64,000 nucleotides of DNA. Source: Methanotrichaceae archaeon. Lineage in GTDB: Archaea > Halobacteriota > Methanosarcinia > Methanotrichales > Methanotrichaceae. The number at the start of each line of letters is the position of its first letter. Position 1 is the first letter of the stretch. The DNA lies in NCBI GenBank assembly GCA_963813075.1, contig CAWEXU010000031.1, forward strand, positions 192,001 to 256,000, read 5' to 3'. The translations under genes were made by a program, and so were the position numbers. The notes under the pieces were generated by a model. The model saw nothing but the letters and a program-made list of their open reading frames with translations, searched no databases and had not been told where the DNA came from. Positions 1,160 to 54,066 of this stretch are shown in pieces.

Positions 1160-1487
1160 CCAAATATCATTCCGATCTTGGGAATCACCTGATATGATAA
1201 TCTGTTAGCATCCTGATATGTATAGGGCTAGGCGAGGGATTAGCCTTATTTTCATAGTATCCGGAATGAATGGGTTCATAGAATACGTTTTTCCAGGAGA
1301 AGAGGTCCGGAGATATATTAATTGCTGGAAATAAATCAGAATTTGATACTGTAGCGTATTGCACAATATAATAATATAATTATAATTTTATGCATCAAAA
1401 GGCTTGTTTCAAAGCCCAAGATTGGCATGTGAGGGGGCATTTAATGAGCGATAAAGTTATATTTAATGATATAACTGAGGAACCGAT

Positions 1488-2186
1488 ATGAATCCTCTTA
1501 TAGATTTGGCTCCAAAATTAATTGATTTATGGAATTTTTATTCGGATATTTATGTGGGTAAGGAAAATAAAATTTTTGATAATTCTTTAACCGTACTATC
1601 TGAAAGGCATGATATTAATAAGGAAGATTTGAAAACGATTTTGGAAAACATTGATAAAGACAAAATTGACGAGGATCAGAAAGATATTATGGACGAATTT
1701 TATACAATATTTTATGAACATATATTGAATGATTCGGAATTTCGAAATAAATTAATTGCAACGAGATTAAGGCACTATGAGTCCTCCCTTGAAGAAATAA
1801 AAGAACTTCTTGATTCTATCAAAGGTGTAAAAAACCATAATGATAAAACCGATTATGTAGATATGATAAAATCTGAATTAGAATATTGTATTGATTTATT
1901 AGAACAACCCCATGTTAAGACATTGCCTACAGATTGTTGGATATCAGTTAATAATAGTGGTCTATTAACGCTTTTTAATAAAGATACAGAATTAAAATCA
2001 ATTCGTGAAATTTATAATAAAATTCAAGATTTTAATGAACGGTCAAAAATACAAAAATTCATCGGATACCCTTGGAAGCGGTTAGAGTATGAAGATGGAA
2101 TGCGATTATCTAAAATGCAAGTGAAACAATTCTTGGAAATACGTAGTTGGCTATTGGCTGAATTAAAAAAATATACGAGTTCGTAA
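1488..2186 (+). CDS. hypothetical protein
   Basis: 232-aa AT-rich ORF with GAGG RBS; no family recognised. Confidence 0.7.
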   Translation: MNPLIDLAPKLIDLWNFYSDIYVGKENKIFDNSLTVLSERHDINKEDLKTILENIDKDKIDEDQKDIMDEFYTIFYEHILNDSEFRNKLIATRLRHYESSLEEIKELLDSIKGVKNHNDKTDYVDMIKSELEYCIDLLEQPHVKTLPTDCWISVNNSGLLTLFNKDTELKSIREIYNKIQDFNERSKIQKFIGYPWKRLEYEDGMRLSKMQVKQFLEIRSWLLAELKKYTSS

Positions 2187-2302
2187 ATGTTAATATATGT
2201 CATATATTATGCTGCACTCTGATGAATTTAAAGTTATTATCGATCAAAATCCGAGCATGGTGTGATATTCTCTGAATCGGTATCTAGCGTTATTAAATTT
2301 AG

Positions 2303-3162
2303 TTAATTCTTTTTGTATTTACGATAATATTTCCGACGCGGGCGATAATATGCAGGCACTTTATTATTTAGATAAGACAACCGGAGAGAAGCAACTTGTA
2401 TGAATAAGGAAGCAATTATAGCGATTATTGCAAACCGCTCCATACAGTCCTTTTCATACCATCTATTTACATGTAGTGATACAACCTTTGGACTAGAATA
2501 CCACTTGTTTCCTAATTTATAAAATAATGTTAGATATATGTTATGATCTCCTCCGGGTGCATTTGGATCTATTGTGAAATTGATACTATAAGGAACCCAA
2601 CCTTCGTTCTCTGTTGTGACTTCACCCCAGTTAGTAAAACCGTTAATATCATACAGGTTAAAATAAATATTAGGCACATTCATATCAATTGAGGAGTTTT
2701 CGGGCCTGCTAGTTATATATGGCCTGTGAATCGTAATTGTACCGTTTAAAGGATTAAAGGTATATTTATACTCTAGCGACTGTAATGTTACTCTATTGTC
2801 CTTAACGATATACTCGGGAATATTAACCCGTAACTTTCCGAAAGTTGCATCGCCTGCGCCAGATATATATAATTTCATTGAATATTCATCATTGTTATTA
2901 ACGTGGCTATTACTTGCTTGAACTTCAATATCATAGGATGGTTCACCTTTAAAAGATGAATCACTAATATCAGTATTCGAAATCGAGTATGTTCCATCAT
3001 CATTAAGAGATAGACTAGAATGGTCGTATTTTCGCTAGTAGATGATGTTGACAATGTCATAAATAATATTAGGACAATCCATATTCTTGACATTTGGCAC
3101 ATTATTGATTCTTTAATTTTATAATCACCCCTGTTATCAATATCTTTTTTGTCTTCATCCAT
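2303..3162 (-). CDS. secreted/membrane-anchored hypothetical protein (one gene split by a frameshift near 3030)
   Basis: signal-like IWIVLILFMTLS; the alternative frame DHSSLSLNDDGTYSISN...EYS runs into MKLYISG; C-terminal TM segment plus basic tail. Confidence 0.55.
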
Positions 3163-3501
3163 ATTTCCTTGATTGCTGAATCAATTTATAATTCTTTCTC
3201 TGCTACGCATCTTCCAAATACTACCACAGAATAGGGAAGAGAGGGAAAATATACTCAACGATATCCAATTCAACATGCTAATCGATGCCCTAATATCATC
3301 CCCATAGTCATGCAGTTTATTAGACCGTTCTAAAAGATAAAGCAAGACCGATATTCAAATATACCTGTTATGATAAACCAAGATTCTAGATTCAACTAAT
3401 AAAAATAAAGATATCTCACCATCTTAAAACCATTTGCTTAATTTTAATTACCAAAAAGCTTTTAATTGAGAACTTTATTAATGAGTAACAGGTGAAAAAA
3501 T

Positions 3502-3942
3502 ATGCGAATAGCAATCTTGGCTGCAATTTTGATAATTAGTACCCAATTTATACCTGTGACTGCGCTCACGGATAACGAAAAGAATAATGTTGAGGCAGTT
3601 GGAACAAGCCTACTTATGAAATCTGAATTTATTTCTTATGGACTTGTTGAAATTGACTATGGAAATACGATGAAAATATGGTTTATATCAAGTGACGATG
3701 ATCAATCTACTGTCGCGAGTTCCCTGGGCATGGTCGTCGGAGTCTATTTAGGTGCCTGCAAAATGTTTCCAGAGATATCTGACTTGAAGTTAATGGTGGG
3801 GACAAAGAATAATGTAGCTGGTGAGTTGTATGCCGAAAGAGCTTGGGCTGATGGAGTTAGAATGAATCCAGATGGGTCATACAACTCTGATGATGTAGCG
3901 GTTCTCGGTTTAAAGGTGCTAGGAACATATAAAGATAGATAA
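3502..3942 (+). CDS. secreted hypothetical protein
   Basis: signal peptide MRIAILAAILIIS; GGTGA RBS. Confidence 0.7.
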   Translation: MRIAILAAILIISTQFIPVTALTDNEKNNVEAVGTSLLMKSEFISYGLVEIDYGNTMKIWFISSDDDQSTVASSLGMVVGVYLGACKMFPEISDLKLMVGTKNNVAGELYAERAWADGVRMNPDGSYNSDDVAVLGLKVLGTYKDR

Positions 3943-3968
3943 TAACAACCATATATGCAAACATCCAA

Positions 3969-4094
3969 CTCTTGGTCCTTTGCATATCTCATGCCCAAAT
4001 CTCGAACGTCCTCCACATCAAAGCCCAGGGAGCGAATAGCTTCGAGACTCGATCTGGGCATATCGGCATCGAGTAGAAATTTAGGCTTTTGCAT
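3969..4094 (-). pseudogene. truncated DUF5615/PIN-like toxin
   Basis: KFLLDADMPRS...GFDVEDVRDLG...KDQE, after which the family pattern ends (~42 aa); overlaps DUF433 partner. Confidence 0.75.
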
Positions 4095-4320
4095 ATGCAG
4101 TGATCTCTTCTCCGGCTACAACTTTGGCCGCATATGCCAGGGCAGCAAGAACATCTTCTTTTTGCAGGTCGTATTCCCTGACAATCTCTTCAATTGCCAT
4201 GCCGCCAGCAAGTGAGCCGAGAATTATATCCAATGGAACCCGGGTGCCCTTTATGATCGGTTTTCCATGCCTCACCGACGGATCAATTACTATTCTATCC
4301 TCGTACATTTTGCGCCTCAA
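4081..4320 (-). CDS. DUF433 antitoxin-like protein
   Basis: RIVIDPSVRHGKPIIKGTRVP...EDVLAALAYA. Confidence 0.9.
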   Translation of the reverse strand: MRRKMYEDRIVIDPSVRHGKPIIKGTRVPLDIILGSLAGGMAIEEIVREYDLQKEDVLAALAYAAKVVAGEEITAYAKA

Positions 4321-4381
4321 CTATAATAACAGACTTCTCGGCATAAATCCATTATCATTGCTTCCTGAAATTATGATTTCG

Positions 4382-4529
4382 GATAAAGCTGTTTCGAGGA
4401 AATGGCAAAAGGACGCCCAGACAGGGACAATTCCAATGATCTACCACACCTTCAAATCGATCCCCTCGATCCTCAACCTCTCCCCCTCCGAGTGCACCAC
4501 CACTCCGCTATGCACCTTCTGCATCATGC
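4382..4529. repeat. second copy of the direct repeat (functional gene end)
   Basis: see 1008-1159. Confidence 0.95.
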
Positions 4530-5116
4530 AGTGCTCGGGCAGAAATCGCACCGTCTCCCCCACCTCCGGCCTCCTGCCCCGGAATACTGTGCCCTCAAAG
4601 GCTAGAACCATGACATATGCCAATGTCCTCGGGCGCAGGCAATCCCTGCAGCAGATGCACCGGCCCCACCAGATGGACGGTGACGACCCCCTGGCTGGAT
4701 TTGAGAACTTTAGCAAAATGAGTGATGGGGCAGCCCAGCGGCCGGTAGCGGAAGACGTCACCCTCTTCCAGCCTGGCCGCAGGATTAAAGGGATGCAGAT
4801 CCTCCCGGCAGGAAGGCTCTCCAGGCAGGGGGGCGAGGGAGAAATCCGCACGCAGGCCATCCAGAACGCCAATGATATCATTCTCTTTCTCTGCGGTGAT
4901 CAGCTTGTCCTCTTCTCTGACTATCTCTTTATCCTTGCTTGATATGTCCAGCAGCTTCTCTATCTCCTCTGTCCGGCCCCGGAACCTCTCCTGCTTGAGA
5001 ATGGGACATCTCTCCAGGCCTGCCACATCCACCAGCTTTCTGGCAAACTCCCGGCAGCTGGAAAATCCGCACTCTCCGCAGTTGTACCCTGGCAGGAGCT
5101 TCTCAATTTTTTTCAT
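4441..5116 (-). CDS. Fe-S cluster-binding protein (frameshift near 4610)
   Basis: [18 protein letters not shown]...CP N-terminal Fe-S domain; C-terminus [14 protein letters not shown] in second frame. Confidence 0.8.
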
Positions 5117-5849
5117 GCTTTTGAAATCCTCTTATCTCCGGCATTCAGCTCACTCGCCAGTGTACTCCATGAACCCATCCAGATGGCGGAGCATTCCCCG
5201 GTGGTGCTCCTTGGAGACCCGCAATTCGCCCGGTGCATAATGTGCAGATGGCCAGCGGCGGGTTGTGCCGCAATGCCATCTCCCCGGAGATCTCCGGCCA
5301 GCCTGAGATCAATTCGGCGATCTCGGCTGAGCCCTTGCCGGTCAGGCCGTTGGCCTCGATTATCCGGCAACCGGGATTGGCCTCCAGGATGCGCTCTCTG
5401 AACACCTCCCTCTCCGCCTGGGATACGAGGTCTCCTTTGGTCATGACCGCAGCATCGGCGGTGGTGAGGAGCGGCCCCACCTTCAGCGGACTGTTGGGGC
5501 CGGTGGTAACATCGATCACGCAGATGGCTAAAGCTTGATCCGGATAAGGAGCACAGCGCAGGCACAGGCCGGCAGTCTCATTGAGCAGAATCCCCGCCCC
5601 CTGCTCTTTGGCCCAGTCGAGCATCTCGTCTACATTGTATATGGCATAGTGATCGGGACACATGTCCTTTGACAGGCCCACAGCCACGGGCAGGCCGAGG
5701 CGCTTGAAGCGAATGTCGTCCTCGGTCCACATGCAGTCGATCTTCACCAGCGCAGGAGAGGCCCCTGCCCGGATCAGGTCCTTTACCGCATGCATGAGAA
5801 CGGACGTCTTGCCTGAGCCCGGCGTTCCCGCCACCACCACCATCTTCAA
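5113..5849 (-). CDS. HypB/UreG-like (G3E) GTPase (frameshift near 3' end)
   Basis: GTPGSGKT Walker [19 protein letters not shown]-terminal CTLC. Confidence 0.85.
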
Positions 5850-6688
5850 GCTACTACCTCACCCTGACGGATGGTCTCCCGCAGGCTGGTGAGCCAGCCG
5901 TCCACCCTCTCGATATCCTTGAAGATCCTCTGCTCCTGCTCATTGGTGCTGATGACCTTGGTCATGCCGCCGTTCTTCATCACAATCCTGCGGGTGGCCA
6001 TCAGGGCCAGCATAGGATCGTGAGTTACCACCACCACGATCTTCCCCTCGCCGGATAGGAGCCGCAGAGCCTCTTGCTTCTTTATTCCCGCGTTCTCGAT
6101 CTCGTCTATCAATACTATTGGCGAGTCGCTGATAACCGCTATGTCCGCCACCATCAGAGCCCGGGACTGGCCGCCGCTCAGAATGGTAAGCTGCATCTGG
6201 GGGCTTATGGGCTCACCGGTCAGGGTATTGGCCAGCTCGATGACCTTGTCCGCCAGAAGAGGGTCCTTGCCCCGGGACTTGGCATGCATCCGCAAGAACT
6301 CTCCCACCTGCATGTCTGCCAGGAAATGCATATTCTGGGAGAGCTGGGCCACCAGCTTCTTTCTCGGGTCGTAGCGCTGCTCGTTTTTCGGCTCCTGGCC
6401 GTTGATCAGAATGCTCCTGCCGGAGGGGGTGTCTCCCAGGGCAAACTGCTCTATATCGGCGATAAGAGTGCTCTTTCCTGAGCCGGTAGGTCCCACGATT
6501 CCTATTATCTCTCCCCGGGAGATCTCTATCTCGGGCACAAGGTCCTGGTGGCCGCTCTTGTCCACTCCACCCTGAACGGTGAGGGTCAGGGGGCTTTCTT
6601 CTGCAGGTTCAAGCTCCAAAGGCTTGACATTCAGGTTAACAGTCGGGCTAATAGTATGGCTAATTGTCTGGCTAACAATCTGGCTCAT
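5846..6688 (-). CDS. stand-alone ABC-type ATPase
   Basis: [22 protein letters not shown]; no permease adjacent. Confidence 0.9.
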
Positions 6689-7908
6689 GATCCTTCCTCC
6701 AAAAATAAGACTGCATCCTCCCAGGAGGAGACTGCAACATCCGGCTGCAACATATAGCGGGAATAATCCTCTTTCATCCTGGCAATGCCGCCGCCGGTTA
6801 TATTGAGAAGTATGATTTCATTCGAGGAGACGCTTCTTTTCTCTACCGCTTTTTTCAGCGCTGCCACCGCAACTGCCGGAGCGTTGAGGATATCGATCTC
6901 CTCAGACTGCTCGAACAGGTCCCTGGCTTCGCTGGCCTCTCGGTCGGTGATTCCGTAAACCATGCCGTTTGTGGCCTTCAGGGCATCTTTGACTCCGCCG
7001 GGCATATCAAGAGGCGGCTTGCGGTTGAACAGGACATCATCGAACATATCATCCTGGTATGGCTCGGGCTCCAGATCCTTCCAGGCATAGTAGATGGGAG
7101 CATTGGGGATATTCTGGGCCAGATGAAGCCTGGGCAATGGAAGTTCCGGGTGGAAGCGGCCGTCATCCCTCAGCCGCAGGCTGGCCTCCCAGGCGGATAT
7201 GCCTCCGGTGCCGCTTCCTACCGCCTGGAAATAGTGGTCGGGCGTTCGGCCCAAAGCTGCCGCGGCATCCAGCATCACCGTTCCCATGCCATCCCTGCGG
7301 GCGATGTTCCTCGCACCGCCCTCGGGAGTGAAGCCCTTTCGGGATTGCACCTTCTCCGCTATCTGAATGGCATCAAGGTAGTCCCCTTTGACTGCGATCA
7401 GGGTTATCCTGCCCGGTGGTACAATCGTCCACATTCTTTCCAGGGCCTTTTCCGGGACGAATAAGACCAGCTGCTGCCCGGTCAGTGAAGCGATATGGGC
7501 AAATGCGCGAGCTGTGTTTCCTGCTGAGGCCACGACCAGTGATGACCTTTCCCCCTTCTCCAGGAGCATCTGCATAGTGGGTGGGGCTTCCAGGTCCTTG
7601 AAGCTGCAGGTGGGCATCCTGGCATCCTTTTCAGGCCAGTAGCCATTAAAGCTGATGTAGAGATTCTCCAGCTCCAGCTCCCGAGCCAGCCCCAGGCTTT
7701 TATAGGTCACTGGCCCCCCTGTTGCCTTTTCTATGATCCCATTCACAGGAAGCCAGTCGATGAACCGCCAGATACCGGGAAGATCCCTTATCTGCAGCTG
7801 CCTGGACCTGTACTCCGCCCGCAACAGCGAGCTGTCACGGGGGCAGCTCAGGGAATATAAAGGCAGCACCGATCCATCGCTCACGCATCTGAGCACATAT
7901 TCTCCCAT
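6685..7908 (-). CDS. cysteate synthase (threonine synthase-like, coenzyme M biosynthesis)
   Basis: [19 protein letters not shown] lysine, [34 protein letters not shown]. Confidence 0.9.
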
Positions 7909-37726: not shown

Positions 37727-38073
37727 TAAATTTTTAAATGCTTCATGCTAATATTATTATTTTTAATAATTTTACTCTCGTTATATATACCTCTATACAT
37801 TTCTGCCTCGTTAATGGACGAATACCGAAAACTATATATTCGTTAATCGCAGTATAGTGTATTGGCAAAAGTCAAATTCTATTTTTCCCTCCTACATCAC
37901 GACTTTTGCCTCCCTCCTAATTACCCCGGTCACTATCCCGAAGATTACCACATTGGCTCCCAAAAGTCCTCCCCGGTCATCCGGCAAGCCGCAATCATCA
38001 TCCATCATTTTTTGGTCACATGAACGCCAGGACAGCAATCCGTATATACCTTGCCGTTTTCAACTTAGTCTGA

Positions 38074-45498: not shown

Positions 45499-47083
45499 CC
45501 TAAACTCCGCCCTTTTTAATAACCATATTCGCCTCAACAGGCACGCTAATTTCCATCTTTTCCAAAATCGTCCTCTGTTTTTTAGAGACCTCTGTAAGCC
45601 TCCACTTTCCGCCGACTTTAACTGCTCGCAACTTTGACAATTCCATCAGAATCTCCTCGATAGAACTCTTATCGAGCAGCTTAGCCTCCCTTGCCCTCCG
45701 GAGCAAAATTGCTCTCAGTATCAGCGATATGAAGAAGATGAACAGCAAGCCTTGTAGCGTTTCGACCTTCTGTACTCTCAGAGGCATAACTTCAAGTTCA
45801 TTCTTCAGATCATCGAACTTCTTCTCGACTTCGTCTCTCTCCCGATAGAGAGAAAGGACCTCATCCCAGCTTCGTTTTGATGAAGAAAGTAGAATTGTCT
45901 TTCCAAATCGATTTACAGCCTGCGATATGGCGTTCACTCGTCTGCTAAGATGAATCGTCTTGCCTTCCAGAGTGTACTCAAAATATCTTTCAAAATTTCC
46001 TGCTGTCCTCTTGAATTGGTCGATTGGATTTCGGAACTCTTTTCCGTCAATGGTGCATTCGATATCGATTAATCGATTGTAGAACGAATTTGTTTCTAAT
46101 CCTTCTCGCTTCTTGTTAAACAGGACATATCCATAGGCATCGACGTCCCCAATTTGAATCTCACTTTCCAGGACATAGAAGATATCACCGCCAAATCTTT
46201 TAGCATTAGCCGGGCTCTCAATTTCTCTATTCGTCTCACTGATCAAGCCCTTGCCGACATTGACGCTAAACGGAAGAGGAATGATAAAATCGATGTTCGC
46301 GTCGTTCATTTCTTTTATATTATTCTCACTGTAGAATCCGCGATCCAAGATGAATAGACTCTTCGATATGCCAAGCGCTTTGACCTCAGCCACAAGGTTT
46401 TTCAGAGTCACAACATCGCTGATGCTGCCTGGAAACAGTTTGAAATATAAAGGTAGATGCCTATGCAATGAAAGAACCAGGCCGAGGTTCACTTGAGGCA
46501 GGTCAAGACCATCGCGATTATATCCCCACTCCAGCCAATCGATATTTCTGGAAGCAGATGAGAGCGATGTGATATCGAATATCAGCGTCTCATCCTCGCC
46601 GGCGATCAAAGAATTATAGAACGAATTCATGGACTTTTCTTTTGTGGCCAATCGTTCCAGGAAATTTGAAAGCCATTGGGAGCTGAATGATTCTTTGAGC
46701 GAGTACATCTCTGGCAGGAAAGAATCATCAAGAACGTTGTTTAAATTCTTAAGAGAGGTTTGATGAAGCAGCTTGCTCATTGCCATAGCTAAAATTATAT
46801 CGCCATCTTCGGCAAATGATTCTGAAAGCTTCTTTCTGAGCTGGATCTCACTGCTTACGGAATCCAGAAGATATGCCGGGCCTAATGATTTCGTTGTCTT
46901 GACATCTCGTTCTGCTGTTTTCGGGATGATCTGGCCTGTTGCCTCATCCCAAACGCCAAGGTATCGCCGTTTCTGCCGGGATTGTTTCTTTTCAGGATCC
47001 CAATAATTTTCGGCTTCGTAAGCATATGTCCGCCCGCGGATCTTCTGCTTAACCAGATATGTCATAGCTAAGAGTAATAACCA
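45499..47083 (-). mobile_element. IS1634-family insertion sequence
   Basis: transposase stop at terminal cctaaactcc; flanked by ttgcgc(c)tttgtg direct repeats. Confidence 0.85.
45500..47065 (-). CDS. IS1634-family DDE transposase
   Basis: FDITS, WGYNRD..DLPQVNLGL, PGSISDV, LDRGFYS, YRERDEVEKKF..LKN. Confidence 0.93.
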   Translation of the reverse strand: MTYLVKQKIRGRTYAYEAENYWDPEKKQSRQKRRYLGVWDEATGQIIPKTAERDVKTTKSLGPAYLLDSVSSEIQLRKKLSESFAEDGDIILAMAMSKLLHQTSLKNLNNVLDDSFLPEMYSLKESFSSQWLSNFLERLATKEKSMNSFYNSLIAGEDETLIFDITSLSSASRNIDWLEWGYNRDGLDLPQVNLGLVLSLHRHLPLYFKLFPGSISDVVTLKNLVAEVKALGISKSLFILDRGFYSENNIKEMNDANIDFIIPLPFSVNVGKGLISETNREIESPANAKRFGGDIFYVLESEIQIGDVDAYGYVLFNKKREGLETNSFYNRLIDIECTIDGKEFRNPIDQFKRTAGNFERYFEYTLEGKTIHLSRRVNAISQAVNRFGKTILLSSSKRSWDEVLSLYRERDEVEKKFDDLKNELEVMPLRVQKVETLQGLLFIFFISLILRAILLRRAREAKLLDKSSIEEILMELSKLRAVKVGGKWRLTEVSKKQRTILEKMEISVPVEANMVIKKGGV

Positions 47084-47213
47084 TTGCGCCTTTGTGGTGA
47101 GGCCTAAGAATCCCGATTTCACCAGAGAGACAAAATGGAGAAATAGTGGCCCCAGTTATGCCCATAGAACACAGCCTAGAACCGTTTGCCTGGATTTCTC
47201 CACCCAGCATACT

Positions 47214-48932: not shown

Positions 48933-49781
48933 ATGGCCGAGGTAGTGGAGCTGATTGAGGAGACAGCAGGAAAGAAGGAAGATGGGGCAGAGGAGGAGGA
49001 TTCAACCCCTTCTGCACCTCCCAGGACCATATGGTCAGGCAGCCTGAGAATAGGTCTGGTCAACATTCCGGTCAAAGCCTTCTCCATGATCAGGAACACC
49101 CGCATCAGCTTTCGCATGCTTCACAAAGCTTGCAAGACCCCCATCTCCTTCAAGCGCTACTGCCAGGAGGGAGAGGAGGTAGCCCTCGCGGACATAGTCT
49201 ACGGTTATCCTCTGGGAAAGGATAAGTATGTAGTTCTGGAGAAAAAGGAGATCGATAAGGCGAAGCCCGAATCCAGGAACACCATAGCCCTCGACCGCTT
49301 CATCAGCTTCTTTGAGGTCGATCCACATTACTTTGAGAAGACATATCTGCTGCTGCCCGACCGCTCCGAGGAGGCCTACTCCCTTTTAAGAGCAGTGATG
49401 GAGAAAACGGGCAAAGCGGCCATCGGCAGGATCACCATGCACTCCCGGGAGAGGCCGGTCATAGTCCACTACTACCGGCAGGCAATCGCTGCCACCACCA
49501 TGAGGTACCCTGATGAGATCACAGATCCGGCGGGATATAGCGTACTGAAAGAGCTTCCCGAGCCGTCGGAAAAGGAGATGGAGCTTGCTATTGAGATCGT
49601 TCGCGGCCTGACTGGCGAGCTGGATTATGGCGCTTATGAGGATGAGTACAAGAAGAGAATCGAGGCCCTGGTCAGGTCCAAGGTGGAGGGCGTGGTGATT
49701 GTACCGGAGAAGAAGAGGGAGAAGCCCCCGGCCAGGAGTCTGATGGAGGCCCTGCGGGCGACGGCCGATTCGCTGAAATGA
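48933..49781 (+). CDS. ku: Ku protein (NHEJ)
   Basis: RTIWSGSLRIGLVNIPVK, YFEKTYLL, MRYPDEI, LMEALRAT. Confidence 0.95.
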   Translation: MAEVVELIEETAGKKEDGAEEEDSTPSAPPRTIWSGSLRIGLVNIPVKAFSMIRNTRISFRMLHKACKTPISFKRYCQEGEEVALADIVYGYPLGKDKYVVLEKKEIDKAKPESRNTIALDRFISFFEVDPHYFEKTYLLLPDRSEEAYSLLRAVMEKTGKAAIGRITMHSRERPVIVHYYRQAIAATTMRYPDEITDPAGYSVLKELPEPSEKEMELAIEIVRGLTGELDYGAYEDEYKKRIEALVRSKVEGVVIVPEKKREKPPARSLMEALRATADSLK

Positions 49782-50738
49782 ATCCGATCAAGCCGATGCT
49801 GGCTGTATCCGGCCAGCCCTTCAGCAGAGAGGGCTGGATCTTCGAGCCGAAGATCGACGGGACCCGCTGCATAGCCTCGGCCCAGAAAAGGGTCGTGCTC
49901 TCCAACCGCAGGCTAGCGGATATCAGCTATCGCTACCCTGAGCTGGTAAGTGCGCTGAGCAGCCTGAAGGAGGAGTGCGTCCTGGACGGCGAGATCACCG
50001 TCTTCAAGAAGGGCATTCCCAATTTTCGTTCTTTAGCGGAGCGAGACCATCAGAACGATAAGATCAAGATAGACTACCTCTCCCGTGCCATGCCGGCCAG
50101 CTATGTCATATTCGATATCCTCCATCTAAATGGGGAGAGCCTGATGCATCTTCCCCTCAAAGAGAGAAAGAGGATTTTGTTCGAGCAGTTGGAGGCGGAT
50201 CTGGAGGATAGCGAGACCGTGACCCTCATCGACTCCTTTCCTGAGAAGGGGGAGGATTATTTTCAGGCCGCTCTCAAAATGGGGAATTGAGGGAGTGGTC
50301 GGCAAGAGGCTGGAGTCGCTCTATCTGCCCGGCATCAGGAGCCAGGACTGGGTGAAGATCAAAAAGAGCCTCAAGCTGGATTTAGTTGTAGGCGGCTACA
50401 TTCCGGGAAAAGGGGATCGATTGCCTTTCTTTGGCGGACTTCTCCTCGGCGCCTACAGCCAGGGCAAACTGGTGTACATCAGCAGGGTTGGATCCGGCTT
50501 TACCGAAGAGGAGCTGCAGGATATCACCAGCCGCTTTTCGCCCACTGAAGAGTCCCCGTTCTCCGATCCGCCGGCAACGCCAGGAGTAGTATGGATCGAG
50601 CCGAAGATGGTGGTCCAGGTCACCGCTCTGGAGACAACACATGATGGCGGCCTGCGGGCCCCGGTATTCCTGCGCCTGAGGGATGACAAGGAGCCGGAGG
50701 AGTGCACATTGGATCAGATGGGAGCGGAATTAAAATAA
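49778..50738 (+). CDS. ATP-dependent DNA ligase, LigD ligase-domain type (frameshift near 50283)
   Basis: KPML, FEPKIDG, VLDGEI, FDIL, EGVVGK, WVKIK, RVGSGF, LRAPVF..LRDDK; ATGA overlap with ku. Confidence 0.92.
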
Positions 50739-50784
50739 CTTGTGAAGAAGATCCGAAGAAGACGCGCCTCTAAAGAGAAGCATA

Positions 50785-51155
50785 AAATCGAGTTCCGGGC
50801 GGGTTCAGCACCGATCCACAGCGCCCTTTTAGAAGGAGCCAATCACATTGTGATGGCCTGTCCGCGCCCCGAGCCCGACTCAAAGCCGGGCAATATAGCA
50901 ATTACCACACTGGACTTAACGCAGCGTCCCTTTTACGAGAACCCTAAAGCACCGCTTGATGCCGGGTTGATCAATTGCACTGCCACTGGCTTTGTGCCGC
51001 GCCCATTGAGCCAGGCGAGATTTCCAGATAAGCTGAATTAAGGCATACTACGCCAATTAAGGCGTGTATCTCTTTGACCCACTGGTCATCAGCTTTTCTG
51101 GTGCTTTTCGGATGCTGCCCCAATAACAGCACCGATAAGCTTTTTTCTCGTTCTT
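50785..51155 (-). ncRNA. candidate large structured non-coding RNA (~370 nt), family unassigned
   Basis: ten or more nested inverted repeats; several mismatches become G-U only on the minus strand; TATA upstream and T-rich tract downstream. Confidence 0.65.
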
Positions 51156-51179
51156 GCGGCTTTAGACGCGGCAATCTAT

Positions 51180-51187
51180 CTATATAA
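51180..51187 (-). promoter_or_regulatory. TATA box for candidate ncRNA
   Basis: minus strand TTATATAG about 25-30 nt upstream of the first helix. Confidence 0.5.
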
Positions 51188-51292
51188 TCGTTATAGTTAT
51201 TTGTAGTTTTCGGTTGAAATCGAATAAATTAAGTGGCCAGACGCAAAGCATGGAGCCAGTAAATATACGGCGAAATTATGCGGTGAAATACT

Positions 51293-52054
51293 GTGAAGAT
51301 AGTCTACAGCAGAGAAATGCAGGAGAGGTATCCTGCAAACCCGGTGGAGAATCCGGATAGAATCTCTCTCTCGGCCTCAGTTCTGCAGGAATTCGAATTC
51401 ATTGAGCCCATTCCGGCAAGCCTTGAGGACATCGCCAGAGTGCATGGACCGGAGCATATCGAACGGGTGAAGAGCAATGGACTGTACGATGCCGCCGCCC
51501 TTGCCGCGGGCAGTGCCATAGCGGCTGCCGAGCTGGCCCTTGCAGGAGAGCCAGCTTTTGCCCTCGCCCGCCCTCCAGGCCACCACGCATCAGCCAACCG
51601 GGCCTGGGGAATGTGCTTTTTCAATAACATGGCCATAGCGGTGCAGAAAGTCCGGCCGAAAGCGAAGCGCGTCCTGATAATCGACATCGATCTTCATTTT
51701 GGCGATGGCACAGTGAGCATCTTTCGGGGAGACAGCAATGTCCGGATCGTCAACCCCTGGTCGGTGGACGAGAACTTCGAGTACCTGAACATGGACCAGA
51801 GCCGCTATTTGGGGCAGATCAATGAGGCCTTCCAGGGTTTCGATTGCGATATCGTCGGGGTGTCGGCGGGCTTTGATACCTATATCGAGGATTGGGGCGG
51901 CCTCTTGAAGATCGAGGACTACAGAATGATCGGCAGGGCCATCCGGGAAGGATCAGAGGAGAAATGCGACGGGAAGAGGTTCGCCCTGCTGGAGGGCGGA
52001 TACCACCCGGGTCTTAAGTGGTGCATAAAGAGCTTCATCGAGGGATTCGGGTGA
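51293..52054 (+). CDS. histone deacetylase family protein
   Basis: RPPGHHA, GMCFFNN, DIDLHFGDG, SAGFD, LEGGY. Confidence 0.93.
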   Translation: MKIVYSREMQERYPANPVENPDRISLSASVLQEFEFIEPIPASLEDIARVHGPEHIERVKSNGLYDAAALAAGSAIAAAELALAGEPAFALARPPGHHASANRAWGMCFFNNMAIAVQKVRPKAKRVLIIDIDLHFGDGTVSIFRGDSNVRIVNPWSVDENFEYLNMDQSRYLGQINEAFQGFDCDIVGVSAGFDTYIEDWGGLLKIEDYRMIGRAIREGSEEKCDGKRFALLEGGYHPGLKWCIKSFIEGFG

Positions 52055-53324: not shown

Positions 53325-54066
53325 CTACCAGGGGGCTGAAATCGCCCGACCAATCTCCCCCATCACCTTCTGCGATCCGAATACTTCATCGGTCCGGCCC
53401 ACGGAGGTGAGCCTGCCCTCCTCTAGCACCGCCACCCTGTCTGCCAGCATCAGTGCCTCCTGCATATTGTGGGTTGCCAGGACAACTGTGGTCTTCTGTC
53501 CAGCCAGGCCCTGCAGTAGGCGGTCGATAGCCTCGACGCTCTTTGGGTCCAGGTTTGCGGTGGGCTCGTCCAATAGCAGCAGCTCCGGCTCCAGGATCAG
53601 AGCCCTGGGCCAGGGCGATCCTCTGCATCTCCCCTCCTGAGAGGGTGTTGGCATCCCTCTTCTCATAGCCGGAGAGTCCGACCGACGATAGTGCTTCCTG
53701 AACCATTCTCTTGTCCTTCTTCCCCCTCATCTTCAGGCCAAAGGAGACATTATGCTCCACATCCGCCCTGAACATCACCGGCTTTTGGAAGACCATAGCC
53801 ATGCGGCGGCGCACAGGAAGCTTTTCACTATCCGGGAGACTTGAGACCTCACGGCCTTCGATTGAAATTCGACCGGAGGTTGGGCCTTCCAGGAGGTTGA
53901 TCAGCCGAAGGAGAGTGGTCTTTCCCGAGCCCGTGGGGCCGATGAGGGCCAGGACCTCGCCCTTCATCACCCTCAGGTTGATATCCTTCAGGATCTCTGC
54001 CTGGCCGTAGCTCTTGGCAAGATCCTCTATCTCCAGGAATGCGCCTTCTCGGGCAATCTCGCTCAA
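53325..54066 (-). CDS. tupC: tungstate ABC transporter ATPase (frameshift)
   Basis: GPTGSGKT, VFQKP, LSGGE, LLLDEPTANLD. Confidence 0.82.

Follow-up and report, generated by a model that had tools for sequence, protein, structure and literature searches.

In the window (the whole stretch of 64,000 nucleotides of Methanotrichaceae DNA that was analysed), a ku gene (48933-49781, plus strand) is followed by an ATP-dependent ligase gene (49778-50738, plus strand) and then by a gene of the histone deacetylase family (51293-52054, plus strand). Between the ligase stop (50738) and the deacetylase start (51293) lies a gap of 550 bp, which contains a large structured non-coding RNA of 387 nt on the minus strand (51172-50786, ends inferred), on which ku and the ligase gene converge and from which the deacetylase gene diverges; all three genes are neighbours and not part of the element. 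The initial annotation had described the gap as tiled by inverted repeats, which are present, and had read it as an independently transcribed large non-coding RNA, a reading now upheld by covariation, a conserved promoter of the RNA's own and cover in RNA libraries, from which the strand and ends of the transcript can be proposed. The RNA is real and represents an uncatalogued class of large archaeal RNA. A 99-aa plus-strand open reading frame in the gap (50742-51041) is not credible as a protein gene because homologs differ by many indels of any length. The ligase gene itself is split by one extra base compared with the related genome G035 (window 50283-50295), a base that is missing from an RNA contig; further window genes are apparently frameshifted (47176-48399/47214-47663 and 53325-54066), and assembly indel errors are therefore likely.

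Over the extent first proposed (50785-51155), the minus strand folds at -156.6 kcal/mol (z -6.08, with none of 100 shuffles equally good) and the plus strand at z -3.41. The closing helix P1, which pairs 51172-51163 with 51005-50996, is conserved (96% paired in 29 homologs), so that the RNA begins further out; the folded RNA stands with a revised 5' end, and the extended minus-strand unit 51172-50786 (387 nt) folds with z -7.29. The orientation, originally argued from mismatches that become G-U pairs on the minus strand, is favoured by 726 G-U/U-G as against 106 A-C/C-A cells in the paired columns of 96 homologs, counted in an alignment fitted to the model. Helices 51089-101/51024-36, 51045-69, 51075-88, 51103-17/51127-40, 51016-20/51146-50 and 50898-903/50973-78 with its inner arms, together with the hairpin at 50838-57, all form part of the fold of the window copy. 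Two other hairpins named at the outset exist as repeats but are weaker alternatives to helices that use the same bases (50873-91, 79% vs 97% paired; 51000-17, 70% vs 96% paired). An 11-nt inverted repeat (50765-50775 / 51160-51170) joins the 5' end of the RNA to sequence just beyond its 3' end, probably by chance because downstream flanks vary among homologs.

The RNA is composed of three domains in a row, all on the minus strand. Domain 1 (50996-51172), a multi-helix region closed by P1, varies freely among homologs, most of which are about 300 to 520 nt long, and in the window copy is without about 75 nt of its closest relatives. Domains 2 (50882-50993) and 3 (50786-50880) are long stems, each ending in a linker-free four-helix junction. 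The perfect junction of domain 2 (about 50970-50907) bears arm B (50940-50927) and arm C (50926-50908), with loops of fixed length and T-loop-like pentamers in most homologs; that of domain 3 (about 50861-50808) bears arm B (50837-50824) and arm C (50823-50809), the latter with the loop UGGAU. In a plain MAFFT alignment of 29 copies, pairing is kept in 89.7% of cells and 47 of 106 pairs have changed on both sides, compared with a mean of 20.7 pairs in shuffles and 36-42% pairing when partners are slid. Two short helices are poor in this alignment (38% and 65%), in a region which is badly aligned or misregistered. Across 96 copies both-side changes are found in 51 of 57 pairs, although the alignment is model-fitted and hence leaning. 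Covariation among homologs, named as a check in the initial annotation, is thus present, and judging from these alignments compensatory selection acts on the structure. Pseudoknots and kissing loops were sought among 96 sequences covering the 3' half and among full-length members of two subfamilies (63 and 48), in alignments that are small and gapped in domain 1, and none with covariation was found.

The two junctions share the same majority base at 24 of 28 positions and differ by transitions at the remaining four. With a profile of domain 3, 82/95 domain-2 junctions and 0/475 shuffles reach 5 bits or more, and both junctions occur in 106 of 122 metagenome loci (seven others are cut by a contig end, two are without domain 3 and seven without a domain-2 match). 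From their sequences, domains 2 and 3 are homologous four-way junction modules; neither this homology nor the multi-copy nature of the RNA was part of the initial account. The junction helices conserve the sequence itself beyond its pairing, which would be the behaviour of recognition surfaces. Linker-free four-helix junctions with conserved guanines also recall the NiCo (czcD) riboswitch, which binds four Co2+ at a four-way junction (10.1101/2025.08.02.668262). An RNA whose junctions bind Ni, Co or Fe in the same manner would buffer metals in a metal-hungry methanogen, but this is improbable: the NiCo model RF02683 matches none of the five host-genome copies at E up to 10, the G-A pairs which NiCo has at two junction helix ends are replaced here by standard or G-U pairs, and the RNA has no expression platform and a random gene orientation, and is not cis-regulatory.

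The arm loops vary little in length. In domain 2 the arm-B loop is 8 nt long in 91/94 copies and the arm-C loop 10 nt in 78/95 (the window copy, at 9 nt, is off pattern), and in domain 3 the arm-B loop is 8 nt long in 71/95. A U-R-x-R-A pentamer is found in 77/94 domain-2 arm-B loops (shuffle mean 15) and the stricter UGxRA in 42/95 domain-2 arm-C loops (shuffle mean 7) and 36/94 arm-B loops, while 57 of the 77 copies with standard loop lengths carry the pentamer in register in both domain-2 loops; the pentamers are short A-rich patterns, and the counts are inflated by the kinship of the copies, which letter shuffles ignore. T-loop folds are predicted for the loops of arms B and C. In both arm-C loops, 95-97% of copies have G as the second base, and the domain-3 arm-C loop begins with UGG in 80/95 copies and with UGGA in 65/95, the base after UGG being mostly A. 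UGG is complementary to the CCA end of tRNA, which the antiterminator bulge of the T-box recognises in this way.

The loop pattern raises the possibility of a free-standing tRNA clamp, in which the paired T-loops of domain 2 would stack on the tRNA elbow and the UGG loop of domain 3 would pair with the CCA end. An abundant RNA of this kind might store, shield or sense uncharged tRNA in trans in slow-growing acetoclastic methanogens and, if real, would be a T-box-like recogniser freed from its leader, in archaea. In PMC7583486 and PMC4919913, the T-box T-loop consensus is given as UGxRA and AGAGA, and T-boxes, RNase P and the L1 stalk are described as gripping the elbow of tRNA through interdigitated T-loops. 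The RNA resembles the T-box, the RNase P specificity domain and the L1 stalk as described there in its two neighbouring loops with T-loop-like pentamers, with one loop that starts with UGG, and the family is a candidate for the new tRNA-binding RNAs for which PMC4919913 names the double T-loop as a search target. However, the clamp is rather unlikely. Unlike a T-box, the RNA shows no leader position, AGAGA loop, specifier or expression platform and has no Rfam match; AGAGA, the partner loop in T-boxes, occurs in 0 of six loop sets. Unlike in the T-box, RNase P or the L1 stalk, the T-loop-like loops here are borne by two hairpins that belong to a four-way junction. Nor is the RNA placed as a T-box leader would be, since the nearest downstream gene lies on the same strand in 43 cases and on the opposite strand in 53, and in the window the RNA is convergent on the ligase gene.

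Upstream of the RNA lies a conserved promoter block of 44 bp on the minus strand. Its left edge is a BRE-like element, CCGAAAA (51207-51213), next to the likely TATA box TACAAATA (51198-51205), whose role is suggested by its position in the usual archaeal promoter layout and where other copies show TATAAGTA or TATATGTA. Between this box and the RNA start is a conserved, near-palindromic block (51176-51200) containing TTATATAG. The initial annotation had taken TTATATAG (51187-51180) for the promoter box, but it is unlikely to be the TATA box: in a second promoter class, TTATATAG is missing and a canonical TATA box stands at the position of TACAAATA, so that the box at 51205-51198, behind CCGAAAA, is the likelier one. 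The near-palindrome (51200-51176), which the second class does not have, may serve as an operator, and the transcript would then start near 51176-51172. Identity within the block is 82% over 44 bp among 74 copies, a figure inflated by their selection for a clear promoter, as against 28% over the adjoining 44 bp on the upstream side. In the genome, nothing but copies of the RNA family scores with a profile of the block, on which ground the palindrome was rejected as the mark of a wider regulon. In nearly every copy, the conserved upstream block and a T-rich tail frame an RNA that starts with GCCGC or a near variant of it; in the window, the T-rich tract after the 3' end (50772-50786, minus strand) is a likely terminator.

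Parts of the stretch are contained in 24 RNA runs from 11 studies, eight of which were compared. In four of these, summed contig depth over 50753-51157 reaches 225-629, 1,182-6,761, 21-368 and 21,000-969,000, with at most 10 for ku, the ligase gene and the deacetylase gene, although the depths sum contigs of several organisms or strains as well as paralogs and the runs were chosen for containing the stretch. In the four further runs, cover lies between 50785 and 51183, with none on 51184-51280 or 50722-50784; the missing contig cover on the promoter and below 50785 gives a weak hint on the limits of the transcript, as metatranscriptome contigs give neither strand nor ends. One RNA contig of 457 nt matches 50798-51133 with 7 differences and continues for a further 121 nt with domain 1 in its longer form, which brings it close to the length of the RNA in near relatives (462 nt); the shortened domain 1 of the window itself is in none of the contigs listed. 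The RNA appears very abundant in libraries from sludge, digester, sediment and compost, and is likely made in large amounts.

Searches of the window against Rfam 15 at the gathering threshold gave 0 matches. At the RNA locus, with E up to 10, only three sub-threshold matches at chance level (E 6-9) were obtained, and in 20 homolog loci, with E up to 1, two flanking tRNAs and no other match, in line with the first impression that RNase P, SRP, tRNA and intron signatures are absent from the RNA. A replacement of RNase P or SRP RNA (RF00373, RF01857) was rejected, as both genes lie elsewhere in one copy each in 5/5 genomes. The initial annotation had also called the RNA ribozyme-like, for which no evidence was found. 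A new ribozyme that cleaves itself, splices or acts on another RNA would suit the size, complexity and conserved junction bases, and RNase P has a tRNA-binding domain which the T-loop-like loops bring to mind. However, this too has a low probability: no Rfam ribozyme or intron matches, RNase P and SRP RNAs exist separately in all five genomes tested, no conserved pseudoknotted core was found, and any cleavage must be incomplete because the 457-nt contig spans nearly the whole RNA of a close relative. No description of the RNA was found in a literature search whose scope excluded motif-survey supplements and most subscription journals. The RNA belongs to no catalogued family, and its architecture was not found in the catalogues or literature searched.

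The host genome has five copies (that of the window, three on contig C30 and one on C4), which fall into four lineages of a tree of 94 copies containing at least three old subfamilies and recent within-genome duplications. Matches were found by blastn in 80 of 105 Methanotrichaceae genomes and, using a covariance model of the 3' 187 positions, in 83 of 105 (1-12 matches each, 363 in total). In a pattern scan, the hosts among the matches listed were Methanothrix, Methanosaeta, Methanotrichaceae, and unclassified Methanosarcinales and archaea; of 16 matches labelled as bacterial one passed the model, a 2.7-kb contig in a Patescibacteria bin that is probably misbinned. Beyond the family, the retrained model R2 matched 0/77 other genomes of the class, model R1 gave a single partial match (E 0.04) in a 151-genome sample of the phylum, and blastn gave one weak match (E 3e-4) in 196 other class genomes; these searches score 17-25 candidates per genome and mean 'not found' rather than 'absent'. 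Within the family, seven genomes of one genus (91-99% complete) have no match, so that the RNA seems dispensable, and a deeper search of nine distinct negative or control genomes returned weak matches only, one of them in apparent coding DNA. No match was found in a plasmid and a phage collection or, with two stricter patterns, in viral contigs, and two IMG/VR contigs bear the RNA beside an integrase and host-type genes. One copy in G035 (L074:2750-3290, minus strand) is degenerate, with an intact promoter and eroded junctions, and is likely a decaying paralog.

Dispersal of the copies, whose flanks differ, had been foreseen as a sign of a MITE if accompanied by target-site duplications; the dispersal was found and the duplications were not. 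Flanking direct repeats of 5, 6 and 8 bp occur at 38, 13 and 1 of 74 copies, as against null values of 38.4, 15.0 and 1.0, and terminal inverted matches extend to 7 bp at most, with 0/74 at 10 bp or more. A non-autonomous element of MITE-like or retroposed type, with a structure that furthers its own propagation, would account for two host-genome copies with 97.5% identity over a stretch that begins 11 bp ahead of the promoter block and stops 2 bp past the RNA end, and for the tyrosine integrases near some copies and on the two IMG/VR contigs. However, the promoter lies outside the transcript and yet travels along, which opposes an RNA intermediate and suggests spread by duplication or conversion at the DNA level. 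Loci are also old and stable: 21 of 30 loci in one genus and three of 20 further loci have a copy upstream of hsp20, and an apparent empty site proved to be an imprecise deletion that left 40 nt of the RNA, in two close genomes. As the structure is, in addition, under compensatory selection, a MITE is largely refuted and a mobile element of any such kind is very unlikely. The hsp20 gene downstream of the RNA copy retains its own promoter-like block, and a strongly conserved promoter block with an imperfect palindrome, about 75 bp upstream of hsp20, is found across the genus (L279-L308); it is possibly a heat-shock repressor site. A 540-aa transposase-like open reading frame is present in the window (45500-47122, minus strand), a close relative of which adjoins RNA copies in three other genomes.

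The speculation that the RNA might be linked to Ku, raised from adjacency in the initial annotation, did not hold. The identities of Ku and the ligase are confirmed, and a copy of the RNA also lies 1-3 kb from ku in G012 and G014, perhaps as a result of their shared location in variable regions. However, the adjacency is not conserved: the window's locus is alone among 126 compared in having the ligase gene beside the RNA, and in the closest relatives the RNA stays beside the deacetylase gene (the same neighbour in four of them) with ku and the ligase gene elsewhere and no RNA adjoining. About 31 kb separate ku from the orthologous RNA in G035, and the 9 kb examined after the ligase gene there contain no RNA. 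Ku is found in 55 of 105 genomes, and each of the two occurs without the other: G070, G071, G079 and G088 (93-99% complete) have 3-10 RNA matches and no Ku, while G013, G017 and G027 have Ku and no RNA match. It is therefore extremely unlikely that the RNA is a partner of Ku or of end-joining repair.

Other neighbours vary as well, which together with the random orientation of downstream genes argues that the RNA is neither a leader nor a terminator and acts in trans. Linkage to tRNA genes is at the expected level (4/87 vs 3.9% expected). A DUF1699 gene lies upstream of 15 of about 100 copies, but was rejected as a dedicated partner because it is present in all 105 genomes, including RNA-negative ones, and near no copy in the host genome. 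DUF1699 genes are multi-copy throughout the family (1-20 per genome in 105/105), and in many of its genomes ku lies about 2 kb from one of them (G073:C56, G076:C10, G084:C10, G054:C46, G077:C1, G067:C15, G075:C1 and others). A recurring cluster (L264:421-4047; L102, L104, L107, L075) combines the chromatin protein MC1, DUF1699 and the large RNA, often with the small RNA described below, a TPR protein, a short tyrosine integrase or toxin-antitoxin genes, and both G079 and G014 contain internal duplications of cassettes about 1.6 kb long.

There are few classes of large structured RNA, and time and again they have proved to carry out basic tasks. The present RNA is archaeal and chromosomal, with up to a dozen diverged copies per genome, and lends itself to direct tests through its twin junctions, its loops of fixed length and its short natural forms of about 320 nt. 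The number of matches per genome (1-12), the old subfamilies with recent duplications, and the imprecise loss of one copy point to a dispensable, dosage-like RNA. The reading preferred here, at a probability of roughly 0.45 and hence tentative, is that a stand-alone, multi-copy RNA works as a two-headed sponge or scaffold. The two four-way-junction heads are predicted to fold into compact modules locked by T-loops, which would bind and hold back an abundant cellular partner; the RNA would act in trans, and copy number and the two promoter classes would set its dose. Candidate partners are tRNA, possibly, as the sole one to which the sequence points and with the clamp as the boldest specific form of this reading, and a protein by analogy with CsrB and RsmX-Y-Z. 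These are RNAs that sequester a bacterial protein through many short GGA loops. The RNA is like them in being multi-copy and trans-acting, with repeated modules and a conserved promoter of its own that includes a palindrome, and unlike them in having two large junction modules instead of many GGA loops.

The features on which the sponge or scaffold is based in part fit self-assembly equally well, and the main rival, possible although unlikely, is a homo- or hetero-oligomer made of RNA alone, as with ROOL, GOLLD and OLE, in which the heads would dock on other copies to build a particle or cage. As an RNA-only cage, it would be an RNA of the ROOL and GOLLD kind. In PMC12286853, ROOL is described as being as abundant as 16S rRNA and non-essential in one strain, and GOLLD as having a conserved 3' region and a variable 5' region. 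The RNA parallels these in its size, its ornate structure, its apparent abundance and dispensability and the lack of a protein gene linked to it, and its repeated modules with A-rich loops would suit A-minor docking; as with ROOL, GOLLD and OLE, several hundred nucleotides of complex covarying structure go with an unclear function. However, PMC12286853 assigns pseudoknots or kissing loops to both ROOL and GOLLD, whereas covarying ones were not found in the small alignments here, and linkage to tRNA genes and matches in the phage collection are likewise missing. Compared with ROOL, GOLLD and OLE, the RNA differs in being archaeal, chromosomal, shorter, present as several paralogs per genome and not near tRNA genes. 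The Rfam models of ROOL, GOLLD and OLE gave no match in the window, at the locus or in the 20 homolog loci.

A second multi-copy family, of small RNA-like elements, was also observed. The window copy (37864-37918, plus strand) has a promoter-like box near 37832, and members are hairpins of 55-70 nt with the anti-Shine-Dalgarno motif CCCUCC in the loop and tail and a BRE/TATA-like block of their own. No Rfam match was found in loci containing the small RNA. Eleven profile matches are present in the host genome, and the small RNA lies just 3' of 20 of 74 copies of the large RNA; it is likely a family of translation-blocking or sponge sRNAs.
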